This document shows, piece after piece, positions 14,757 through 38,682 of a stretch of 61,111 nt of DNA (its first letter is position 1; every line of letters starts with the position of its first letter). Source of the stretch: an uncultured Acidobacteriota bacterium (GTDB taxonomy: Bacteria > Acidobacteriota > Polarisedimenticolia > Polarisedimenticolales > DASRJG01); assembly GCA_964628935.1 (NCBI GenBank), contig CAZVOE010000001.1, positions 28,769 to 89,879 on the forward strand, in the 5' to 3' direction. The notes beneath the pieces were generated by a model that made no database searches, was not told where the DNA came from, and saw only the letters and a program-made list of their open reading frames with translations. The position numbers and the translations under genes were made by a program.

Positions 14757-15158
14757 TCAGATCCCCTTGTGTTCCTCTTCCTGCTTGTAGAGGTACCGGA
14801 TGGCGTGCTTGAAGACGAGTAGGTTCGGCGCGTCGTCGCGGTTGACCTTGATGCAGTTGCGGTCGTACCACTCGATGTGGCCGCGAAGCTGCTGTCCGTC
14901 GTCGAGAACGACGACCATCGGAGTCCGCGCGTTCATCTGTTTCAGGTAGTAGAACGCCTCCGCGCTCGTGGCGTCGGGGGGTGCGGATCGGCGCCTCGGC
15001 CCTCCGGGTTGAGGGGCGGACTGGCCCGGGGGGGGTTCTGTCCGCTCCCGGGGCGGCGGTCCTTGGATCGCCGGGGTAAGGACGCCGCCGCTCCGGCCGT
15101 TACCGAGCCTCTCCTTGAGTTCGGCGAGATTGGGTCGCACGAGCTTCCGGTTCATCAT
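14757..15158 (-). CDS. hfq: Hfq-like Sm-fold RNA chaperone with a Pro/Gly-rich N-terminal extension
   Basis: The C-terminal 65 aa, AEAFYYLKQMNARTPMVVVLDDGQQLRGHIEWYDRNCIKVNRDDAPNLLVFKHAIRYLYK, match the Hfq helix-Sm1-Sm2 layout, including the KHAI Sm2 motif. Start inferred at ATGATG 15158/15155, preceded by GGGAG. Confidence 0.6.
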   Translation of the reverse strand: MMNRKLVRPNLAELKERLGNGRSGGVLTPAIQGPPPRERTEPPPGQSAPQPGGPRRRSAPPDATSAEAFYYLKQMNARTPMVVVLDDGQQLRGHIEWYDRNCIKVNRDDAPNLLVFKHAIRYLYKQEEEHKGI

Positions 15159-15343
15159 GGTGGCTCCCGAATCGCCTGGCCCCGCCGCCAGTTCTACCAA
15201 ATTGAATTCGTATAATTACGCTTTTTCGTGACCACATCGTCCCCCGACGGCAGCGGGGTCCGCTTCGCCATTCGCGGGAAACGATCCAATTCTCAAAAAT
15301 CCTACTGGCAGACGCATGTCGGCGCAAGCCGCTTCTGAAGGTT

Positions 15344-17006: not shown

Positions 17007-20000
17007 GCGGCCCCCTTTCCCAGGACCGCCTCCACGACGTCCCTCGCCGCCCGAATCCGCTCCGAGGCCCTGGCCGGAGCCGGAAGGACCATCATGCCCG
17101 AGGGGGCGAGCGAGCCCCGCCGGATCCTCACCAGATCCACGAGCCGTGCGGCGTCGACCGGCGATCGCTCGTGGAATCGGACCCGCATCCTGCCGTCGGC
17201 CACGTCGATCGAGCGCACCCCCGCGGCCTCGGCGAGTAGGCGGAGCCGGGCGACCGCGAACAAGTTCCGCCCCGACGGAGGAAGATGCCCGCTGCGATCC
17301 TCGGTATCGGCCTCGAGTCGGTCGATCTCCGACTCGTCGCGCGAGGCCGCGAGTCGCTTGTATAGGGCGAGGCGATCGCCGACGTCAGGGAGGTAGCTCT
17401 CCGGGATCTTGATATCGACGCCGAGGTGGACGGCGGCCGGGGTCCGCTCGACGACGGGTTCGCCCTTGAGTTCGCGCACGGCCCGCTCGAGCATCTGGAC
17501 GTACAGATCGAAACCGAGCGCGGCGATGTGGCCATGCTGCCGGGACCCGAGGAACTCCCCGGCGCCTCGGATCTCGAGGTCGGCCGCTGCGAGGCGGAAG
17601 CCCGAGCCGAGTTCCTGAAACTCCTGGAGCGCCTTGAGGCGCCGCTTCGACGTCTCCGTTAGGACGTGCCGTCCGGGCACGAGGAAGTAGGCGTAAGCCC
17701 GCTCCTCGCTGCGCCCCACCCGCCCGCGGAGCTGGTAGAGCTGCGCCAGCCCGAAGTGGTCGGCTCGATTGACGAGGATCGTGTTCGCCTTCGGAATGTC
17801 GAGACCGTTCTCGATGATCGTGGTCGTCACCAGCACGTCGGCCTCGTGGCGCACGAACCGGAGCATCACCGTTTCGAGTTCGCGCTCGCGCATTTGACCG
17901 TGGGCGACCGCCACTCTCGCTTCCGGGGCCATCTCCCGCAGCGCCCGCACGAGCGGAGGGATCGTCTCCACCCGATGATGGACGAAGAAGACCTGCCCTC
18001 CGCGCCGCAACTCCTGGCGGATCGCCTGAGCGACGATGCCCTTCCGGAACGGAACAACGTAGGTCTGGATCGCCGACCGTCCTGTCGGAGGCGTTTCGAT
18101 GATGGAGAGGTCGCGGGCCCCGGCGAGCGACATCTGGAGCGTGCGGGGGATCGGCGTCGCGGTCATGGAGAGGACATCGATCCCCACCGAGAGCCTCTTG
18201 AGACGCTCCTTGTCGGAAACGCCGAATCGTTGCTCCTCGTCGACGATCAACAGCCCGAGCGCCCGGAACCTCGCGTCGCTCGACAAGAGCCGGTGCGTCC
18301 CCACGACGAGGTCGACCTCTCCGCGCGCGACGGCGTCGAGGACCCTCCGGGTATCGGCGCCGGACCGGAATCGCGAGAGCATCTCCACCTTGACGGGGAA
18401 GGGCGCGAATCGCTCCCGGATCGTCTGGTGGTGCTGCGCGGCCAGGACGGTCGTGGGCGCCAGGAACGCGACCTGCTTGCCGTCCATGATCGCCTTGAAG
18501 GCGGCTCGGATGGCGACTTCAGTCTTGCCGAATCCGACGTCCCCGACGACGAGGCGGTCCATGGGGCGATCCGATTCCATGTCCTCCTTGATCTCGCGGA
18601 GTGTCCGCCTTTGGTCCTCGGTCAGCTCGAACGGGAACGCCGCCTCGAGTTCGCGCTGCCACGCTCCGTCGGGGGAGAACGCGTGTCCCTTCGCAGCGCG
18701 CCGCTCGGCGTAGAGCTCGAGCAGGTCCTTCGCGAGCGATTCGACCGACTTTCGGACCCGGGTCTTGACCCGGTCCCACCCCGGACCGCCGAGCTTGTCG
18801 AGCGGCGGTCTCTGCCCCGCGACCCCGCTGTACTTTTGCACGAGATCCAGCCGGTCGACGGGAACGAACAGGCGGTCGCCGCCCTGAAACTCGAGCACCA
18901 TGAAGTCCCGGTTGAGGCTCCCGCCCTTCGGCCGGCCGAGCCCCACGTATCGCGCCACGCCATGGTCGGTGTGCACCACGAGGCCGCCGGGCTCGAGGTC
19001 GCGGAAGTCGGAGACGAACGCTCCCTTCCCACGCCCCCTCTGTTCCGCACCCTTCGGCTCCTCGCCGAAGATCTCGCGCTCGGCGAGGATGGAGATCGCC
19101 TGGTCGGGAAGGTCGAACCCGTGGCGGAGACCCCCGACCGTCACGAAGAGTCCGCCCCGGACGGAGAGTTCCTCGCCGGGAGCGGCTCTCTCGCTCCCCA
19201 TCGCCGGGTGGAGCCCGTACTCGGAGAGGATCTCGGCGAGTCGCTCGGCCCCTCCCGTCGCCCGGAGGACGCAGATCGTTCGGACCCCGTGCGACCCGTC
19301 GTCGCGGAGCTTCGCCGCGAGCTCGTGGATCCGCCCCGACCAGCTCCGCGCCCGCCGAGTCGGTAGAAGCACGGCGTCCCGTCCGGGTGGATTCTCGAAA
19401 CGTTCCAGTTCCTCGAGAGCGACGAGTGCCATCGAGGCCTCCTGGGCGGCCACCGCCGGATCCCGCCAGAGCGCCTCGGGTGGCGGAAGGGTACGGTTGC
19501 TCCCCTGCTCCCAGGCCGCGGTCCGCTCGTGCGACGCCCGTGCGATCTCCTCGCCGGCCCTTTCCGGCTCCTCGCAGACGACGATCCCTCCGTGCAGATG
19601 CTCGAGGAGCGTCGAGGGGCGCGTGGCGACCAGCGCGGCGAGCGCCTCGAAGCCGGGAAGCCACCCTTCCGTTCGAAGTCGCTCGAGCCGCTCGCGGAAC
19701 GGGAGGACCGGCCGGTCGTCTGTCCGCGCGCGTGCCGCCCCGCCTTCGAGGTGCTGCGCGAGACGCGCGACGGCTTCGTCGTTCGCCGGGACCTCGACTG
19801 CGGGGCCGTACGCCGCCTCGGAAAGCATCCCCGTCGAACGCTGATGATCCGTGTCGAACGAGCGAATCGTCTCGACCGTGTCCCCGAAGAACTCGATGCG
19901 CACGGGCTCCTCGGCGTCGGGAGCGAAAAGGTCGACGATCCCCCCCCTTCGGCTGATCTCTCCACGCGCCGCGACGACGTCGACGCGCCGGTACCCGCCC

Positions 20001-28315: not shown

Positions 28316-28500
28316 CCAACCTCCCTCGCGAGCGGGCGTCCGACCCGGCGGCGGGCGACGGTCTCGCGTCGTCGCGTCTAGCCAGGGGCGTACCAGGGGA
28401 GAGAGGTGGTTTTTCTGAAGGAAAACGCGTGTCCACCTCGGGAAGCATCCCGTGGGATGACGGTTTCGGCAGGTCGATGACGAAAGGGTGCCGCTGGGTC

Positions 28501-28520
28501 TGCCGACATGAACGTCGGCG
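28501..28520. promoter_or_regulatory. 20-bp palindrome, copy 1 (tGCCGACA-tgaa-cGTCGGCG)
   Basis: Read directly from the sequence. One mismatch per arm to the consensus CGCCGACA-N4-TGTCGGCG. It lies in the parB-bactofilin intergenic region. Confidence 0.5.
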
Positions 28521-28560
28521 AAGCCAAACATGCAGACAAAACGGTCGGCGGATGAGACAT

Positions 28561-28580
28561 CGCCGACAAGATTGTCGGCG
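28561..28580. promoter_or_regulatory. 20-bp palindrome, copy 2 (CGCCGACA-agat-TGTCGGCG, perfect arms)
   Basis: Read directly from the sequence. It lies 4 nt downstream of the parB stop and 60 bp from copy 1. Confidence 0.5.
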
Positions 28581-28583
28581 CGA

Positions 28584-29492
28584 CTAGCGGCTTCCCTGTC
28601 CCTTCGGGCTAGCCCGTACGAGCAGCTGGTACAGCCGGTCGAGCTCGTCGGCGCTGTAGTACGCGAGTTCGATCCTCCCCCGCTTCGGACCGCCGACGAT
28701 CCGCACCTTGGTGCCAACCGCTCGCTGGAGGTTCTGCTCCGCGGCCACGACGTTCGGGTCGCGCTCCGAGGGACGCCCTGCCTTCGATCGCTTCGGACCG
28801 CTCAATCGGGCGACGATCGCTTCGACCTGGCGGACCGACAGCCCCTCGCGGACCGTCCGCTCGGCGAGCGAGGTCTGGTCGGCCGCCGAGGCGAGGCCGG
28901 CGATCGCCTTTCCGTGCCCGGCGCCGAGGCGCCCGGCCCGAAGATCGTCCTGCACTTTCCGTGGGAGGCCGAGGAGGCGAAGGGCGTTCGTGACGCTCGT
29001 GCGCTGCTTCCCCACCCGAGAAGCGACCTCCTGCTGCGTGAGGCCGAGATCGTCGAGGAGAAGCTGGTAGCCCTCGGCCTCCTCGATCGGGTTGAGGTCC
29101 TCCCGCTGGAGGTTCTCGATGAGAGCGAGTTCCAGGAGCTTCTCGTCGGGAACCTCGCGAATCACCGCGGGAACCCGGTGGAGACCGGCCCGCTGCGCGG
29201 CCCGCCAGCGTCGTTCTCCGGCGACCAACTCATACGTCCCGCCCCCGAGCGGGCGCACGATGATCGGCTGGAGAAGCCCCTGGACCTGGATCGAGGCCGC
29301 CAGTTCCTCGAGGGCGGCCTCCTCGAACGCCTTTCGGGGTTGGCGGGGGTTCGGCCGGATCCGGTCGATATCCAGCTGGACTTCGCCGGATCTCGCGACC
29401 GGACTGGCCTCGGGGGGCGGTGGAGCCGGGGTCCGCGGGGGGGCCTTGGGAATGAGACTTCCGAGCCCCTTACCGAGCGCCTTGCGTTTCAT
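28584..29492 (-). CDS. parB: chromosome partitioning protein ParB/Spo0J
   Basis: 302 aa, starting MKRKALGKGLGSLIP. It has the GERRWRAA (CTP-binding/ParB box) motif and an HTH (LTQQEVASRVGKQRTSVTNALRLL). Confidence 0.95.
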   Translation of the reverse strand: MKRKALGKGLGSLIPKAPPRTPAPPPPEASPVARSGEVQLDIDRIRPNPRQPRKAFEEAALEELAASIQVQGLLQPIIVRPLGGGTYELVAGERRWRAAQRAGLHRVPAVIREVPDEKLLELALIENLQREDLNPIEEAEGYQLLLDDLGLTQQEVASRVGKQRTSVTNALRLLGLPRKVQDDLRAGRLGAGHGKAIAGLASAADQTSLAERTVREGLSVRQVEAIVARLSGPKRSKAGRPSERDPNVVAAEQNLQRAVGTKVRIVGGPKRGRIELAYYSADELDRLYQLLVRASPKGQGSR

Positions 29493-30249
29493 GCTCCATC
29501 ATCTCCTTGGCGAGCCCGAGGTAGGCCTCCGCGCCCTTCGACCGGATGTCGTAGAGGAAGATCGCCTTGCCGTGACTCGGGGCCTCGCCGAGCCGGACGT
29601 TCCGCGGGACGACCGTCCGGAAGACCTGATCCCCGAACACGTTTCGGACCTCGTCGACGACCTGGCGGGAGAGGTTGGTCCGGTCGTCGTACATGGTCAG
29701 GACGACCCCCTCGATCTCGAGGCGCGGATTGAGCGACTCCCGGACCCGGTCGATCGTCTCCATCAACTGGGAGATCCCCTCGAGGGCCAGGTACTCGCAC
29801 TGCACCGGCACCAGAACCGAGTCCGCGGCCGAGAGGGCATTGACCGTGAGGAGGCCGAGCGACGGGGGGCAGTCGAGGAAGATCCGGTCGAATCGCCCCC
29901 TGTAGGGCTCGAGAAGGTCCCGAAGCCGGAACTCCCTCGATTCGACCTCCACGAGCTCGACCTCGGCCCCGTAAAGGTCGCGATCCGAGGGAATGAGGTG
30001 GAGGTGAGCCAGATCGGGGCAAGCGAGAGCGATCTCTCCGAGACCGACGTCGCCCGACAGGGCGTCGTACAGCGACGGCCGGTCGACGTCGGGCGCGAAA
30101 CCGAGGGCGCGCGTCGAGTTCGCCTGTGGGTCGGTATCCACGAGGAGGGTGGGACGCTCGGCGATGGCGAACGCTGCGGCCAGGGAGACTGCGGTCGTGG
30201 TCTTGCCGACTCCCCCTTTTTGATTCGCGATGGCGACGACTCGGCCCAT
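29470..30249 (-). CDS. parA: chromosome partitioning ATPase ParA/Soj
   Basis: ATG at 30249 (MGRVVAIANQKGGVGKTTTAV, deviant Walker A). 259 aa. Its 3' end overlaps the parB start by 23 nt. Confidence 0.95.
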   Translation of the reverse strand: MGRVVAIANQKGGVGKTTTAVSLAAAFAIAERPTLLVDTDPQANSTRALGFAPDVDRPSLYDALSGDVGLGEIALACPDLAHLHLIPSDRDLYGAEVELVEVESREFRLRDLLEPYRGRFDRIFLDCPPSLGLLTVNALSAADSVLVPVQCEYLALEGISQLMETIDRVRESLNPRLEIEGVVLTMYDDRTNLSRQVVDEVRNVFGDQVFRTVVPRNVRLGEAPSHGKAIFLYDIRSKGAEAYLGLAKEMMEHETQGAR

Positions 30250-30297
30250 GGATGTCCCGCGGGAAAGGTCGGAATCTACCACAGCGGGGGAGGCGAG

Positions 30298-30311
30298 GTT
30301 CCACGTGGAAC
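30298..30311. promoter_or_regulatory. parS: parS centromere site (GTTCCACGTGGAAC)
   Basis: A perfect 14-bp palindrome matching the conserved parS core (tGTTNCACGTGAAACa family). It lies 49 bp upstream of the parA start. Confidence 0.8.
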
Positions 30312-30333
30312 GTGGGTATGCCGGGTCTCCACC

Positions 30334-30347
30334 GTTCCACGTGGAAC
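30334..30347. promoter_or_regulatory. parS: parS centromere site (GTTCCACGTGGAAC), second copy
   Basis: An identical 14-mer, 36 bp from the first copy. Confidence 0.8.
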
Positions 30348-30550
30348 ATGAGGTGACGGATCGGTGCTCGCTTCGGGAGAAGGCGCGGGCCGAAGTTCCC
30401 GTGGGCCCTTGGGTTTGCCGTTCCGATCTCGACAGGACCCCCGGCTCGACGCTTCATGGTGCGGGCATCGCGATGGAGATGGAACTCCAGAACCCACCGC
30501 GTTTTCCGCCTGGTACGCCCCCACATCGGCGGCCGGGCCCGCTGCCAACA

Positions 30551-30570
30551 CGCCGACATTATTGTCGGCG
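30551..30570. promoter_or_regulatory. 20-bp palindrome, copy 3 (CGCCGACA-ttat-TGTCGGCG, perfect arms)
   Basis: Read directly from the sequence. It lies in the divergent region between parA/parS and the giant exoprotein gene. Confidence 0.5.
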
Positions 30571-30580
30571 TGCGCCTTTT

Positions 30581-30600
30581 TGCCGACAGATATGTCGGCG
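30581..30600. promoter_or_regulatory. 20-bp palindrome, copy 4 (tGCCGACA-gata-TGTCGGCG)
   Basis: Read directly from the sequence. It lies 30 bp from copy 3 and 70 bp upstream of the ATG at 30670. Confidence 0.5.
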
Positions 30601-30669
30601 GCGTTACGGTGGGGGAATCACACCGTCTGGTCCGTCTACTTCCCGTAGCACAAGCAGGGGAGGTAGGCG

Positions 30670-33600
30670 ATGCCAACGACAAAAGAGCGACGGTTCTTCT
30701 TCCACGCGCTTCCGCTCGCGATCATCGCGCTCGGCGGACCGGCGGTCGCCCAGACGACCGTTCCCGGCGGGACGATCTCGACGGACACGACTTGGACGCT
30801 CGCGGGCTCCCCGTACACATTGACCGGCACCGTCGTCGTTGTGGGAGCCGACGGCCCGGACGGAATCACGACCCTCACGATCGAGCCCGGCGTCGAAGTA
30901 CGCGCGAACAGCGGCGTTCAGCTTCAGATTGGAGGAACGACCACCGGAAACCCCGGAGCCCTCGTCGCCGATGGTAACGCCGCGGGCGGGCCGGCCCAGA
31001 TCCTCTTCACCACCTCGAGCCCCACGCCGGGACCGGGAAGCTGGAGTGGTCTCCATTTCCGCACGGGGGCGCGCGCGTCCACCCTCCGAAACGCCAAGAT
31101 CGAGTACGGCGGAGGAGGAGGTTGGGCCGGAGTCTACGTCTCGACCGCCGCGTCCACCGTCCTCACCCTCGACCAGGTCGTCGTGCAGGACAACGCCGGG
31201 AACGGCCTTCAGCTCCAGGGCCCGGTCACGCTCGCCTTGTCCGACTCGACGATCACCTCGAACTCCGCGGACGACCTCGGGATCGGGAGCAACGCGTCCA
31301 TCACCGGAACGGTCACCGGCTGCACGATCTCGAGCGTCAATTACGCCGCGAGCAACGCGCAGATCGATTGGTCCGGGAACGCCTTCGTGAGTTGGGGTAC
31401 GCGTGTCTCCCGCATCCCCGCGAACGAGATCGGGGACTTCGGGGTCGACAACTCGTTCGCGAAGGTCCCGAGCGCCCTCGTAAATGTCCTCAGCGATACG
31501 GTTTCCCTGGACGCCGCCTTTAAGACTGCCACGGCGGACGCCTACGTCCTCCTCAACAGCGTCTCGGTCTTCGGAACCGACGGTCCCGACGGGATCACGA
31601 CGCTGACGCTCGAACCGGGTGTCGTCCTGCGCGCCAACAGCGGCGCCCAGGTTCAGATCGGCGGCACCTCCGCGGGGAGCCCGGGGGCGCTCATCGCGGA
31701 CGGAAACGCCACGGGGGGGCCTGCCCAGATTCTCTTCACGTCCTCCAGCGGAACGCCGTCACCTGGGAGCTGGGCCGGGCTGTACTTCCGAGCGGGCGCT
31801 CGCTCGTCGACGATCCGCAACGCCCGTGTCGAGTACGGCGGCGGGGGCGGCTGGGCCGGGATCTACGTCTCGACTGCCGCCGCGACGGTCCTCACCCTCG
31901 ACCAGGTCGTCGTGCAGGACAACGCCGGGAACGGCCTTCAGCTCCAGGGCCCGGTCACGCTCGCCTTGTCCGACTCGACGATCACCTCGAACTCCGCGGA
32001 CGACCTCGGGATCGGGAGCAACGCGTCCATCACCGGAACGGTCACCGGCTGCACGATCTCGAGCGTCAATTACGCCGCGAGCAACGCGCAGATCGATTGG
32101 TCCGGGAACGCCTTCGTGAGTTGGGGTACGCGTGTCTCCCGCATCCCCGCGAACGAGATCGGGGACTTCGGGGTCGACAACTCGTTCGCGAAGGTCCCGA
32201 GCGCCCTCGTAAATGTCCTCAGCGATACGGTTTCCCTGGACGCCGCCTTTAAGACTGCCACGGCGGACGCCTACGTCCTCCTCAACAGCGTCTCGGTCTT
32301 CGGAACCGACGGTCCCGACGGGATCACGACGCTGACGCTCGAACCGGGTGTCGTCCTGCGCGCCAACAGCGGCGCCCAGCTTCAGATCGGCGGCACCGTC
32401 GTGGGAACCCCCGGCGCGCTCGTCGCCGATGGGAACGCCGCGGGGGGGCCTGCCCGGATCGTCTTCACCTCCTCGAGCGCGACTCCCACGCGCGGGAGCT
32501 GGACCGGGCTCTACTTCCGCGCAGGGGCACGTCCCTCCCTGATCCGGAACGCGCGCATCGACTACGCCGGCGCGGGAGGATGGGCGGCCGTCTACGCGCA
32601 GCACGCGAGCGGGAACACGCTCACCCTCGATGACCTGATCATCACCGAGAGCGCGAGCTACGGCGTCTATCAACAGGGGCCGATCGCGATGAGCCAGATC
32701 GCGATCACCGGGACGACCGACAACGCGATTCGCTTCAACTCCGATCCGGTCTCGGTCGCTGAGTGCGATCTGAACTCGGGGTCCACCTTCGACGTCTATC
32801 TCGGCAACGGTTCGAGCGTCTCCGGTTCGATCCAGAACTGCAGCGCGATCCGGAGCGTGTTCTACGCGGGAAGCCTGCCGGCGGTCTTGTGGACAGGAAA
32901 CACTTTCGAGAACTGGGGCGCCCGAACGTCCCGCGTGCCGATCGCGACGCTCGACGGCTTCTCCCGGAACAACACGTTCAACGTCATCCCGGGCGCAGTC
33001 CTCGAAGTCATCGGCGGAGCACTCTCGGCCGACGCCACATGGTCCGCAGCACCCGGTCCGTTCGTTTTCACTCTCGTCGACGTCACGGTGCAGGGAACCG
33101 ACGGACCGGACGGGCGCACCACCCTCACGCTCCTCCCCGGTGTCGCCATCCGGATGCAGGCGGGCCGGTCGTTCTACGTGGGGGGGACCAGCACCGGAAA
33201 CCCCGGCGAGTTGATCGCCGATGGCCGGACGGGCGGGGGGACGTTCCAGACGATCAACTTCGGATCCGCCGCCCCGTCGCCCGCCGCCGGAGACTGGGAG
33301 GGACTCCACGTTCGCGCGTTCGGACGGGCGGAGCTGTACGAAACGCAGGTGCGTCACGCGACTTCTTGCGTCCACGTCCAGGGAACTCTCGGGCCCGTCG
33401 ACAAGCTGAGCTTGAGCCGCTGCAACGTCGGACTGGATCTCTCGAACGCCGTCCTCGAGGGGACCCTGTCCCGGGTCCTGACGGGAAACAGCGGGACGGG
33501 TGTCCGCTCTTCGGGAACCTCTGCGGTCTTTCGCGACAGCACGTTGGCGGGAACCGTTTGGGGGGTGGAGAACGTCACGCCGGCGACCGCTTGTGTCGAC

Positions 33601-35184
33601 GCGGTCTCGAATTGGTGTGGGGCGGCGAGCGGACCCTCGGGGGATCCGCCGCTCCAAGGATGCGAGACGGAAGACCCGGACGGAGCGGGATCCCGGGTCA
33701 GCGACGGCGTGCTCTTCGGGTCGTTCCTCGGGGCGCCCGGGGACGACGGCGATCCGGTCGCCTGCGACGACGGGGACGGCTTCCCCGACCCGTGCTCGGG
33801 CGGAAACACCGTCGACTGCGACGACAACTGCTGCCTCGTCGCGAACGCCTCCCAGGACGACGAGGACGGGGACGGCGTCGGAGACGCGTGCGACGCGAAC
33901 CCGGTGCTCCGGGTGTCGAGCGATCCGCTGGACGGGGCCGACTTCGCCGTCGTGCAGGACGCCGTCGACGCGACCTTCCAGTCGGGCACGCGGATCGAGA
34001 TCTATCCCGGACTCGGGCCGTACCTCGAGGCCGTCCGCGTCGACCGGAACCAGGTGTACACGTTCGAGCGAATCGACGACGGGACGGGCGACCCGGTCGT
34101 CGTTGACGGCCTCTCCGACGCCGCCTTCCGGTTCCTCAACAAGGCGGGCACGGTGCCGATGGTGGTCCGCGACTTCACCCTTCGCGGAGGCCAGGGGATC
34201 CGTAGCGCCGTGGACACTCTCGCCGAAGACATCGTCTTCGACATGATCTCCTTCGAGGCCTACCAGGCGGACGCCGGTGCGCACACGCTGCGCCGCGCGA
34301 CGGTGGGCGAGCTCGCGGCGGTGGGCGCACGGGTCGCCTTGGGCGCCTCGCTCGACGCATCGCGCGTCGAGATGCGCGGCCCCACGACCGCGGGGGTGAT
34401 CGCCGAGGGGAGCGTCGTCCTCCGGAACGTCCTCGTCGCCGACGGGACGAGCGGCGCGGACGGGATCCGTCTCGGGTCCGGTGCCTCCGTGACCGCCCAG
34501 TACGTGACGATCGAGGGGAACGCCGGCCGCGGGATCGACAACACGGCGGGCGGATCTGTCGCCGTCGACCGCTCGATCGTTTGGGGGAACGCGGGAGGCG
34601 ACCTCGCGAACGCCTCCTGCGCCGGCATCTCGTGGAGCGACACGGGCGATCCAGCCTGCACCCCGGGGAACGGCAACCTCTCGCAGGACGCCCTTCTCGG
34701 CCTCGATTCGAGGCCGCAGGCCGGTTCGCCCTGCCTCGACCACGGTCCTTCCGCGTCCGGGTACGCCGGGATCCCGCCGACCGACCTCGCGGGCGAGCCT
34801 CGCCTGCGTGACTTCGACGGGGACGGGATCGCGGTGAACGACTGCGGGGCCTACGAAGTGGACAATGGAGCCCTCGTCCCGGGAGAGGTCGTGAACCTGC
34901 GATTCGACTTCAACGACTTCCGGCTGTTGTGGAACCCCGAACCCTCGGCGGCGGAGTACCACGTCTACAGGGACCTCCTCTCGAACCTCTCGTACGGGTC
35001 GTTCGGCGTCTGCCGCGACGACCTCGACGGCGACCGCACCGATGCGCAACTCGAGGACTTCGAAGAGCCGCTCGCGGGGCAGGGGTTCTTCTACCTGATC
35101 ACTGCGGAGAGTCTTGGAGGAAACGAGGGGACTCTGGGGCTGGCCGCGGCGGCCGAGCGGAGCAACTTCAGCCCGTGCCCGTGA
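30670..35184 (+). CDS. giant secreted right-handed beta-helix (PbH1-like) repeat protein with thrombospondin type-3 calcium-binding repeats
   Basis: 1504 aa with SD GGGGAGG and signal peptide [20 protein letters not shown]. It contains four tandem modules, each with [34 protein letters not shown]....G.W.GL.FR.GAR ..N..I.Y.G. A TSP3 segment follows ([27 protein letters not shown]). The C-terminus is a further beta-helix region and a domain of about 90 aa. Confidence 0.85.
31159..31650 (+). repeat. 492-bp segment identical to 31888..32379
   Basis: I compared the two segments line by line and saw no mismatch. The identical 63-aa antisense ORFs at 31341..31532 and 32070..32261 in the ORF track confirm the 729-bp offset. 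Confidence 0.9.
31888..32379 (+). repeat. second copy of the 492-bp perfect repeat
   Basis: Same evidence as for 31159..31650. Identity breaks at 31651/32380 (g versus c) and upstream of 31159/31888. Confidence 0.9.
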
Positions 35185-37336
35185 CGATCCGCCAAACCTG
35201 GGCGACGAGGAAGCAGACGACGAACCCGAGGACGAGGGGGAGCGCGACCGAAAGCGTGGTCCAACGCGCGCTCCCCGTTTCCCGGTAGATCGTGTAGATC
35301 GTCGTCGAGCAAGGGTTGTGGAAGAGGCTGAACAGCATCAGGTTGATGCCCGTCAGCGTTGTCCATCCCGACTGGCGCAGGAGCGACGCCACCGCGTCGG
35401 CTTCGTCCAGCTCGAACATCACTCCCGCGCCCGCTCCGACGCCGGTGATCCCCCCCGTGAGGACCGTGAGCATCAGGATCGTCGGGATCACGATCTCGTT
35501 CGCCGGAATCGCGACGACGTAGGCGAGCAGGATCACGCCGTTCAGCCCGATCAGAAATCCGATCGGATCGAGACCGGCCGCGAGATGATGGGCGAGGCTC
35601 GCCCCGCCGACCTCGATGTTCCCGACGAGCCAGGTGACCGCTCCCGCCGGTGCGGCGAAGAGGACCGCACGCCCGAGGACGATGAGCGTGCGATCGATCA
35701 GGGAGGTGTACAGGGTCTGCAGGATCCTCGGAGGCCGATAGGGCGGCAGCTCGAGGCTGAACGAGGTCGGCTCTCCGCGCAGGACCGTCCGCGTGAGCAA
35801 CCATGACGACGCGAGGGCGGCCGCCACGCCGAGGAGAGTCACCGCCACGACCGCGGACGCCGCCACGACCCCGGCGAGCGCAGGCGGGGCGAGCGCACCG
35901 AGGAAAATCGAGGCGATCAGGATCTGCGTCGGCCAGCGCCCGTTGCAGAGGGAGAAGTTGTTCGTGAGGATCGCGACGAGGCGCTCCCGAGGGCTGTCGA
36001 TCACCCGAGTCGCCACGACCCCCGCCGCATTGCACCCGAATCCCATGCACATCGTCAGGGCCTGCTTTCCGTGCGCGCCGGCTTTCCGGAAGAGCGGGTC
36101 GAGGTTGAAAGCGACACGCGGGAGGTACCCGAAGTCCTCGAGAAGGGTGAACAGCGGGAAGAAGATCGCCATCGGGGGGAGCATCACGCTCACGACCCAC
36201 GCTGTCGCGAGGTAGACCCCGTCAATCAGCACTCCCTGGAGCCATGCGGGGAAGGCGAACGAATCGGCGACCCCTCGGAGAAACGGATGGCCGCTGTCGA
36301 CGAGGAGAGAGGCAAGAAGCGAGGAGGGAACGTTCGCCCCGGCGATCGTCAGCCAGAAAACGAGCGCGAGCAACGCGATCATCACCGGAAATCCCCAGAC
36401 TCGGCTCGTCAGGATGCGGTCGAGGGTCCGGTCGAGATCGAAGCCTGCCTTGCGCAGGCCGGTCAACTGGACGCGCGCCGTGATCCGCTCGGCTTCCCGG
36501 TAGATCGCCTCCGTGATCTTGTCGTGGAAGTCGGCGGGAAGCCGCCAACGCGCAGCGCTCGCCGCCGCGATCACCGCATCGGCGGCTCCGGGCGCTCGCG
36601 GGATTCCGAACTCCCCCTTGCGGATCGCTTCCGCGACACGCTCGTCGGCGTTCAAGAGGCGCAGGGCGACCCAGCGGGCGTTCGGAAGGCCGGGAAAAGC
36701 GCGCTCGACCGCCTCGCGGATTTCCCCAATGTGTTCCTCGATCGCAGCGGCGTGGCGAGCGATCCGGAACGGACGCGGCGTCTCAGCTCCGGTCGCGACG
36801 CGTTGGATCGCCTGTCGCAGCTCCGCGATCCCTTCCCCGCGTCGCGCCGAGGTCGGGATGACCGGCACTCCGAGCTCACGGGCGAGCGCCCGAGGATCGA
36901 TGCCGATCCCGTGTCGCTTCGCCTCATCCATCAAGTTCAAGCAGACGACGACCCGGTCGGTCACCTCGAGCACCTGCAGGGCCAGATTCAGATTCCGTTC
37001 GAGCCGTGTCGCATCGAGGACGACCACGGTGACGTCGGGCCGCCCGAAGAGGAGGTAATCGCGCGCGACCTCCTCGTCGACACTACCGGCCTGGAGGGAA
37101 TAGGTTCCAGGTAAGTCTATGAGACCAAAGATCTTACCGGATTCCTCAAACCTCCCTTCGGCGCGGGCGACCGTCTTTCCCGGCCAGTTCCCGGTGTGCT
37201 GGCGGAGTCCGGTGAGCGCGTTGAAGACGGTGCTCTTTCCGGTGTTCGGGTTCCCCGCGAGCGCGACCGTGTGATCGACGGGAGCGCTCCGGTTGGAGAT
37301 CTGCACGAGGGGGACGGGGGCGCGGGATCCCTTCAT
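35168..37336 (-). CDS. feoB: ferrous iron transporter FeoB
   Basis: 722 aa with an N-terminal G domain ([19 protein letters not shown]) and a polytopic C-terminal permease. The ATG at 37336 overlaps the stop of the upstream gene (ATGA). Confidence 0.95.
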
Positions 37337-38373
37337 GCGGCGCCTCGCTGCTCCGCGGGCTCGATCTCGATCGCCCGCGCCTGCGCGCGGCGGAGAGCGA
37401 TCAGTGCGCCGCGGATGCGGTAGGCGACGGGATCTCCCGAGGCGTTCGCGTACTCCGCTCGGATCTCCGTGCCGGGTACGACGCCGAGATCGAGAAGTCG
37501 GCGGCGTTCCGACCCGGTGCAGACGGGGGAGATGCGGGCGACGTGCCCCGACTCGCCGGGATTGAGGTCGGCAAGGGTTCGAGGTCTCGCGGTCGTCCGA
37601 CCGGGATGAGACGCCACGCTCACTGCCGGCCCGAGGACTCTGGGAAGGGAGACGGTTCGCCCTTCGAGTTCGATTTCGAGGGAGGACTCACCGACTGCGC
37701 GGACGATGAGGGTCTTTCCCAGGTCGAGCCCGAGCCCGCGAAGGTGCTCGAACATCTCCCGCGGCTCGTCCTCGAGGTGGATGACCGTCCCTGCTTCCCC
37801 CGGCCTGACGGCGGAGAGCGGAAGGCCGCTCGTTTCCGGGAGCTCACCGGCGGAGGTGGGAATCGGATCGCCGTGCGGGTCGTACCGCGGATGACCCATT
37901 CTCGCGGCGAGGACCTCCACCTCGGCTGTCGTCAACGCGTGCTCGCGTTCCTCGGCGAGATCGTGCCAGTCGGCCGGGCGGACGCCGGTCCGATCGGCAA
38001 GATAGCGCTCGACGAGCCGATGGCTCCGAAGGACGCGCAGCGCATAAGCCCTTCCGTCGTCGGTGAGCACCGTGCCTTGGCCCTCTGGCCTCGCGAGTCC
38101 GTCCGCCTGGAGCCGGGTGACCAGGCCCAGCACCCGGTCCCGCGGCACCTCCATCGAGCCGGCAAGGCGTTCGACGCTCGCAGGACCTCCGTCGGCGGTG
38201 GCGTGAAAGAGATGCTTGAGGGCGTCCTCGAGCCGGACCCGGTCGGTGAGCCGGCGGCGGCGGGCGAGGCGGGGGATGAGGCCCTGGCGCGGCCAAAACA
38301 GAAGCAGACCAACGCCGACCGAAGTGGCGAAGATCGCGAGCGCGAGCCAAGGGTCCGGGGTCGATTGGTTCAT
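37333..38373 (-). CDS. DtxR/MntR-family metalloregulator fused to an SH3-like domain plus a FeoA domain, with an N-terminal hydrophobic helix
   Basis: ATG at 38373. Residues 8-28, [21 protein letters not shown], are hydrophobic. The DtxR core is [71 protein letters not shown]. Two FeoA/SH3-like segments follow ([15 protein letters not shown]... and [16 protein letters not shown]...[10 protein letters not shown]). Confidence 0.75.
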
Positions 38374-38382
38374 GGCGGCTCT

Positions 38383-38400
38383 TTTTTGATGACTCAAAAA
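38383..38400. promoter_or_regulatory. AT-rich inverted repeat TTTTTGA-tgac-TCAAAAA, candidate metalloregulator operator
   Basis: Read directly from the sequence. It is the only AT-rich palindrome in this GC-rich divergent region and lies about 10 nt upstream of the DtxR-FeoA start. Confidence 0.3.
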
Positions 38401-38682
38401 TAGCCGCCTCACGAACGCTTGTCAACGGGGGCCGCTCAACCCGGTCCCGTCGTTCTCGGCCAAACTCCCGCGACACGAACCGGGAGGCACAGCAGGGCGA
38501 CGGCTCCCCTGAACAGGAGACGGAACCCCATCGTGGATGCAGAGGAATCCGACTTTCCCCCCTCCGATCGTCGCTCGGGTTGAGCGCGGCTGCTCTTCCG
38601 TCGCCAGGCGGATTGAGACGATGTGAATTCCGGTAGACTCCTCCGCTCCGGCCAATCCCGCACCGAACCCCAGGAGGTTCCC

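Follow-up and report, generated by a model that had tools for sequence, protein, structure and literature searches.

What purpose is served by the short palindromes that lie on either side of the chromosome partitioning genes parAB in an uncultured acidobacterium? The window studied here, 61,111 nucleotides (nt) of contig CAZVOE010000001.1 from a Polarisedimenticolia genome (GCA_964628935.1), was described in a first-pass annotation as carrying four copies of a 20-bp palindrome, at 28501, 28561, 30551, and 30581. All four are present with the sequences given there, and they match CGCCGACA-N4-TGTCGGCG with 2, 0, 0, and 1 mismatches, respectively. Searching with this pattern and up to two mismatches returned five matches in the window, against 0.15 expected from 100 shuffles of the window, none of which reached five, and a chance origin of the sites was thereby ruled out. 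The fifth of these matches is a lone site at 18071, within the mfd coding region. Once the threshold was relaxed to three mismatches, a further site surfaced at 28531 to 28550 (D2, TGCAGACAAAACGGTCGGCG), exactly midway between 28501 and 28561. D2 combines the mixed half-sites GCAGAC and GTCGGC and fits perfectly the refined core GC[C/A]GAC-N6-GTC[G/T]GC. The two sites previously described as a pair 60 bp apart therefore belong to a triple with an exact 30-bp spacing, while the 30-bp spacing of the other pair was confirmed. Overall, two clusters of palindromic sites, five in all and phased at exactly 30 bp, surround parAB: a triple on the parB side, made of D1 (CGCCGACAAGATTGTCGGCG, 28561 to 28580, starting 3 nt past the parB stop), D2, and D3 (TGCCGACATGAACGTCGGCG, 28501 to 28520), and a pair on the parA side, made of U1 (CGCCGACATTATTGTCGGCG, 30551 to 30570) and U2 (TGCCGACAGATATGTCGGCG, 30581 to 30600). 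Pfam assignments confirmed the gene context as first described, the triple lying between the parB stop (28584) and a bactofilin gene, and the pair between the parS sites upstream of parA and an exoprotein gene on the opposite strand.

We compared the sites with those of related loci, which were fetched for this purpose and are referred to below by L numbers. Alignment gave a refined unit consisting of YGC[C/A]GACA, an AT-rich N4, and TGTC[G/T]GCR. The proposal of conserved 8-bp arms around a free 4-bp spacer held, the arms being invariant and both the 4-bp spacers and the 10-bp linkers being unrelated between organisms. The centres of the sites are AT rich although the genome has a GC content of 68%, and successive sites are spaced by 30 bp in 41 of 72 intervals and by 19 bp in 10 of 72. 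The half-sites vary independently of each other. At half-site position 3, 184 of 239 unique sites have a CG pair, 45 are mixed (unpaired), and 8 carry a compensated AT pair; the variants amount to one transversion, seen from one strand or the other, and G-U pairs never result. Across 144 sites, five of the eight pairs of the putative stem never vary, and the sole internal pair that does is unpaired in 27 of the 33 variant cases.

This pattern of variation bears directly on the idea that the palindromes act as REP-like (repetitive extragenic palindrome) or terminator-like hairpins, at the level of RNA or single-stranded DNA, that protect 3' ends or terminate transcripts of genes such as parB and feoB. 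Four of the five window copies indeed fold into stable RNA hairpins (-11 to -17 kcal/mol, z-scores of -3.4 to -6.4), the copies directly follow stop codons, and one of them is followed by a T-run on the plus strand. D2, however, barely folds (-4.4 kcal/mol, no better than shuffles), hairpins do not need a strict 30-bp phasing, and the internal variable pair is mostly left unpaired. An intrinsic terminator was ruled out by the absence of a U-tract after the hairpins on the transcribed minus (parAB) strand; the only terminator-like match (30549 to 30582) is the one with the plus-strand T-run, and no gene ends there. Checks of the locus against Rfam and for tRNAs found no known RNA family and no tRNA. 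Independent half-site variation together with free spacers and linkers fits a symmetric dimer on double-stranded DNA rather than a hairpin, and the strict spacing, the AT-rich centres, the missing U-tract, and the lack of an Rfam match favour the same solution, in which neighbouring dimers would be in contact. We consider it likely that a specific dimeric DNA-binding protein binds the palindromic sites, and we give little credence to the hairpin explanation, which is the weakest of those considered here. To this extent, the earlier suggestion of an operator for a dimeric regulator stands in its general form, with invariant arms, free spacers, independent half-sites, phasing, and orthologous conservation.

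To assess conservation without bias from the motif, eight other organisms were reached through ParB homologues alone (ParB 59 to 92% identical). All eight carry 2 to 6 copies, starting 0 to 4 nt past the parB stop, so that the motif is not missing at the parAB loci of relatives. More broadly, arrays of 2 to 8 sites were found in every relative examined, that is, in about 56 nonredundant loci of Polarisedimenticolia-like Acidobacteriota. Each array starts 0 to 30 bp past the stop of the preceding gene, parB in most cases, and the bactofilin gene and/or atpHAGDC follow downstream. In three loci, the spacer downstream of parB is expanded to 0.5 to 1 kb (L046, 6840 to 7600; L054, 990 to 1950; L188, 11780 to 12260) and holds three separate 30-bp pairs, 100 to 400 bp apart; L054 has in addition an inverted repeat of about 50 bp between the site pairs.

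The copies are also confined to this position. Within 385.5 kb of sequence from the 56 loci, 245 sites are clustered at the intergenic position and only 3 are isolated, and the copies are thus not scattered. A pattern made of one site and, in the 30-bp register, a half-site was run against 185,579 species genomes and matched at 73 loci, 15 of which are parB/atpH loci of Acidobacteriota (Polarisedimenticola or Polarisedimenticolaceae, "Acidobacteria bacterium Mor1", or similar). Of the genome loci, 14 have arrays with variable AT-rich spacers in a ParA/ParB/bactofilin/AtpH context. The complete genome of Mor1 (5.99 Mb) was matched by this array pattern at the parB/atpH locus only, and other genomes of the class have one or two loci each, on the parAB flanks. 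A scan of metagenomes for two full sites in register returned at least 120 loci; among the matches listed, at least 32 have variable AT-rich spacers, all in a ParA/ParB/bactofilin/AtpH context, and one further array with such spacers lies on a short contig whose context could not be placed. The remaining matches with two or more sites (for metagenomes, among the matches listed) belong to families resembling REPs or bacterial interspersed mosaic elements (BIMEs), and the other genome-scan matches are lone sites in unrelated taxa, whose spacers are GC rich and whose occurrence agrees with chance. No array was found in the viral contigs scanned, and a phage or plasmid origin was rejected.

REP/BIME-like families with the identical stem GCCGAC..GTCGGC do exist, in other phyla and also in another acidobacterium: they were seen in L027, L064, and L081 (metagenome-assembled genomes [MAGs] of Planctomycetaceae), in L055 and L061 (MAGs of Anaerolineae), in L072, and on many metagenome contigs. 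Like the arrays, REPs and BIMEs are GC-rich, hairpin-capable intergenic palindromes that often come in pairs about 30 bp apart. The same-stem families, however, have constant loops (GTCCYC/GRGGAC, CTTCAG/CTGAAG, TTCT/GGAA), a GGTAC flank, and several loci per genome, whereas the arrays have variable AT-rich loops, no conserved flank, independent half-site degeneracy, and a single locus per genome, and are orthologously conserved across the whole class. A REP family, one of the three possibilities raised initially, was therefore rejected for this lineage on the basis of copy distribution and loop variability. Judged from the DNA, what the whole class shares is a phased array, at a single locus, of sites of the kind that proteins bind.

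A concrete mechanism for the downstream triple is offered by a promoter that the first-pass annotation had missed. Alignment of the parB-bactofilin spacer revealed an invariant block, CTGGTACGCCCCTGGCTAG; the sequence TGGTACGCCCCTGGCT (GG-N10-GC; 28395 to 28380, minus strand) fits the -24/-12 consensus of sigma-54-type promoters and lies about 80 bp upstream of the bactofilin ATG. The pattern TGGYAYG-N4-TBGCW has a single match in the window, against 0.04 expected. It occurs once each in 19 of 204 fetched loci, always between the array and the bactofilin gene, and is absent from the roughly 140 unrelated loci scanned. The presumed target of the promoter is the bactofilin gene itself (28315 to 27878, minus strand; 145 amino acids, PF04519; start codon set by alignment).

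The distance between array and promoter is conserved as well. From D3, the proximal site, to D1, the sites of the window triple begin 124, 154, and 184 bp ahead of the -24 element. The proximal site lies 122 to 125 bp from the -24 element in six organisms of the window clade and 174 to 178 bp from it in seven organisms of a second clade, two distances that differ by about five helical turns. The DNA in between is only 58 to 79% identical within the window clade and 56 to 67% identical within the second clade, which is close to the level of identity between the two clades, and the distance is nevertheless kept within ±2 bp across these diverged relatives. Both architectures have in common a core triple with 30-bp spacing. 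Assuming a transcription start near 28368, about 12 nt past the -12 GC, the centres of the triple would be at about -142, -172, and -202. Between the array and the promoter lies an inverted repeat, GAGGTGG-N23-CCACCTC (28403 to 28439), with phased A/T tracts, which is conserved in the window, L005, L006, and L041. At the equivalent place, the second clade has a different palindrome, TCGAAAT..ATTTCGA. Such repeats could introduce a bend or be the site of a second factor or coregulator.

This organization resembles that of known enhancers. In NtrC-type enhancers such as that of glnAp2, GC-rich arms flank an AT-rich centre, neighbouring sites are separated by about three turns, and a GG-N10-GC promoter follows 100 to 200 bp downstream. 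Like glnAp2 and norV, which has three NorR sites, the window array consists of at least two to three inverted-repeat sites about three turns apart and 100 to 200 bp upstream, and the likeness extends to the GG-N10-GC promoter, the conserved array-promoter distance, and the bend-prone segment in between. To our knowledge, the half-site GC[C/A]GAC does not match any described site of an enhancer-binding protein. Our literature searches found no report of sigma-54 control of bactofilins, nor of the palindrome motif.

The parA-side pair has a more restricted distribution. Pairs orthologous to U1/U2 are present in L001, L002, L004, L005, and L071, a pair recurs in the distant L102, 1 nt past the gidB stop, and L054 has a single site, while most lineages carry only the downstream, parB-side array. 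Bracketing of parAB, as initially described, therefore applies to the window clade and to these few loci and is not a general rule. In L002 and L004, feoB ends 6 to 7 nt before the pair and there is no exoprotein gene, which indicates that the exoprotein gene (30670 to 35184, plus strand), encoding a beta-helix protein of 1,504 amino acids, was inserted later beside a pre-existing pair; L071 shares this insertion between feoB and the pair. The gap between the pair and parS is about 200 bp in the window and only 10 to 11 bp in L002 and L004. The pair lies 70 bp upstream of the exoprotein ATG, and the window and L071 resemble each other far more closely in the segment between pair and ATG than in the parA-side flank; because of this, the pair may now serve the exoprotein promoter. 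A conserved leader with a putative promoter occupies 30601 to 30669 (plus strand); if transcription starts near 30648, the centres of U1 and U2 would lie at about -88 and -58. The exoprotein gene, which had been counted among the genes coordinated by the sites, thus appears to be a recent neighbour of the pair. The 12-mer CTGGTACGCCCC, the -24 half of the bactofilin promoter, has a second exact copy at 30510 to 30521 (plus strand), 30 bp from U1. It was rejected as a second sigma-54-like element, as it lacks the -12 GC and is not conserved in L071.

We propose that one symmetric dimeric regulator, encoded outside the window, would bind all of these sites. Each 20-bp site would take one dimer, and the 30-bp spacing, about three helical turns, would permit contact between neighbours. 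The triple would then act as an upstream enhancer, on which three dimers would form one hexamer and loop onto the sigma-54 RNA polymerase. The same protein would occupy the second pair, which has the parS/parA promoter on one side and the inserted exoprotein gene on the other, and it could thereby couple the parA and exoprotein promoters to the same signal. That a protein binds, that it belongs to the enhancer-binding proteins, and in which direction it regulates are inferred from the DNA. We estimate a probability of about 0.45 for the complete arrangement in the window, in which the control region of parA and the exoprotein gene has a second pair in addition to the sigma-54 bactofilin enhancer. 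This arrangement departs in its details from the earlier picture of an operator coordinating segregation, bactofilin, and exoprotein genes, since the class-wide element is the array upstream of bactofilin and atpH.

Several observations weigh against this enhancer arrangement. In about half of the lineages, the arrays are perfect although the sigma-54 motif is missing. Among these are lineages that lack the bactofilin gene (L014, L033, L042, L082, L118, L122, and others), in which three or four perfect sites lie upstream of the sigma-70 atpH promoter, with the centre of the proximal site varying from -56 to -290. In several lineages that have the bactofilin gene (L188, L192, and L198 among them), the array comes as close as 15 to 60 bp to the bactofilin ATG. 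The array-binding protein can therefore not act solely as a sigma-54 activator, and the presence of the same arrays in sister lineages without a sigma-54 promoter sets them apart from NtrC-family enhancers. Scans of the window and of the relatives' 10-kb flanks turned up no gene for an enhancer-binding protein (PF00158), and the only transcription factor there is a DtxR-FeoA fusion. At the outermost pair of the palindrome, symmetric changes are slightly more frequent than expected (1 of 500 shuffles reach this level), which could hint at stem pairing, although relatedness could produce the same excess. Finally, the arrays nearly always abut the stop codon of the upstream gene, be it parB, feoB, gidB, or another gene without assignment, and this adjacency is accounted for more naturally by an insulator or roadblock.

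Accordingly, the regulator may not be an enhancer-binding protein at all; the sites could be an array of operators for another type of protein, such as a TetR-like dimer of dimers, acting as a repressor, roadblock, or operon insulator. Bound there, it would keep transcripts of feoB or gidB from running on into parS/parA and those of parB from reaching bactofilin/atpHAGDC. The arrays indeed lie 0 to 30 bp past the stops of parB, feoB (L002 and L004), gidB (L102), and other genes (L076 and L144), their geometry relative to the downstream promoters varies, and the promoter class is sigma-54 or sigma-70 depending on the lineage. With its range of -56 to -290, the proximal site shows no consistent class I geometry, and a fixed activator position at the sigma-70 atpH promoter was rejected. 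The architecture of the sites is likewise documented for TetR-family regulators: the operators of McbR, TAGAC-N6-GTCTA (PMC2723105), and CymR, ACAGAC-N6-GTCTGT (PMC3694467), are 6-N6-6 palindromes like the array sites, and the GCAGAC variant nearly matches their half-site. The core GC[C/A]GAC-N6-GTC[G/T]GC conforms to xAGAC-N6-GTCTx, which is a similarity of architecture only. McbR and CymR operators lie across promoters of neighbouring genes or of the regulon, usually with the regulator gene linked, whereas the arrays have two to eight phased sites, a variable promoter position, and no linked regulator. TetR_N gave no match in any window open reading frame (ORF) scanned, and no TetR-type regulator is encoded in the relatives' 10-kb flanks; the gene for one might lie elsewhere in the genome. 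The 6-N6-6 architecture also resembles that of TyrR/NtrC-type boxes. Moreover, an insulator would be expected at many operon borders, yet there is one array locus per genome, and a roadblock leaves unexplained why the distance from array to sigma-54 promoter is kept within ±2 bp across diverged DNA. We regard a regulator of this kind, with its roadblock or insulator action, as unlikely.

A third explanation is a structural one. The protein on the arrays could form a nucleoprotein complex near the origin, namely, a second centromere-like site, a polar tether, or a boundary element bracketing parS-parAB, for instance by blocking sliding clamps of ParB bound to cytidine triphosphate (CTP), and transcription would not be its primary concern. 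Each genome has a single locus, next to parS/parAB; some 20 kb away, gene orientation switches at rpmH-dnaA, which puts oriC near 49.3 kb. Both the window clade and the unrelated L102 have parAB flanked by arrays on either side. The arrays are also multimeric and phased, like plasmid centromeres: in pB171, parC1 and parC2 flank the par operon, and sopC of the F plasmid has phased palindromes. In contrast to these plasmids, the locus already has canonical parS sites and ParB, and no cognate gene is linked to the arrays. Most lineages have the downstream array only. In L076 and L144/L115, the array precedes atpH, the gene in front of it is a different one without a Pfam match, and the contig contains neither parB nor parS; the array is hence not obligately tied to parABS. 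This weakens the second centromere-like or nucleoid-protein site that had been considered at the outset.

The motif is also clearly distinct from parS, as the first-pass annotation had noted: it shares no half-site with the parS palindrome TGTTNCACGTGAAACA, and a parS-like element was rejected. The two canonical parS copies, GTTCCACGTGGAAC, are separate, at 30297 to 30312 and 30333 to 30348. They overlap the upstream half of the parA promoter, whose -10 element (TGTGGTAGATT, 30283 to 30273) is invariant in relatives, which suggests that ParB may autoregulate parAB.

One form of the structural explanation is that the arrays are a boundary or insulator of the centromere module, a phased multimer that would shield parS-parAB from RNA polymerases reading through and/or restrict sliding ParB-CTP clamps. 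The same protein would then serve the neighbouring bactofilin and atp promoters only secondarily. We consider a structural complex improbable, and a boundary of this kind, including its secondary promoter role, no less so. Nevertheless, stop-codon adjacency, the arrays free of sigma-54 promoters, and those free of parS keep both the roadblock/insulator regulator and the structural boundary element under consideration.

Other candidates for the binding protein or for the nature of the element were discarded. CooA, of the CRP/FNR family, recognizes TGTCGGC-N2-GCCGACA (PMC545781), which contains the same 7-nt words as the arrays but in the opposite order and with a different spacing. A CooA or CRP/FNR site was rejected, as the constant unit of the arrays is GCCGACA-N4-TGTCGGC and the junctions between units are N1 or N12, never N2. 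The DtxR-FeoA fusion (37333 to 38412, minus strand), a DtxR-type metal-repressor C-domain fused to FeoA domains and located upstream of feoB, was dismissed as the binder, as feoAB is absent from most array-bearing loci. A DnaA-box/oriC element was likewise rejected, the sole DnaA-box-like match in the window being near dnaA.

The genes around the arrays are arranged as follows. On the minus strand, parA (30249 to 29470; Pfam AAA_31 and CbiA) has a 259-amino-acid model in agreement with its relatives and is followed by parB (29492 to 28584; ParB_N, HTH_ParB, and ParB_C). Downstream of the triple, the bactofilin gene is followed by atpH (27742 to 27200), atpA, and atpG. The sigma-70 atpH promoter, with an extended -10 (TTGAAC-N17-TGCTATCTT; 27881 to 27852, minus strand), is conserved in all lineages, and the TGA stop of the bactofilin gene (27880 to 27878) falls inside its -35 hexamer. 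Elsewhere in the window, an ORF with an Hfq domain (14757 to 15215, minus strand) was noted, the open frame of which runs about 90 codons further upstream of the domain.

The arrays are a well-defined cis element that will help in annotating the genomes of this class, without changing any paradigm. Since the motif is sharp, multicopy, and restricted to a single locus, it would make an excellent bait for finding the binding protein. Were the arrays to be a boundary, they would constitute a genetically encoded centromere boundary shared by the whole class and a new kind of origin-proximal element; we know of no description of such a boundary in bacteria. If the proposed enhancer arrangement is correct, an almost uncultured class of Acidobacteriota would place the gene of a cytoskeletal protein, bactofilin, beside parABS under sigma-54 enhancer control, and some of its genera would have wired parAB and a giant surface protein to the same regulator. 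Chromosome segregation, cell architecture, and an environmental signal would thereby become linked.

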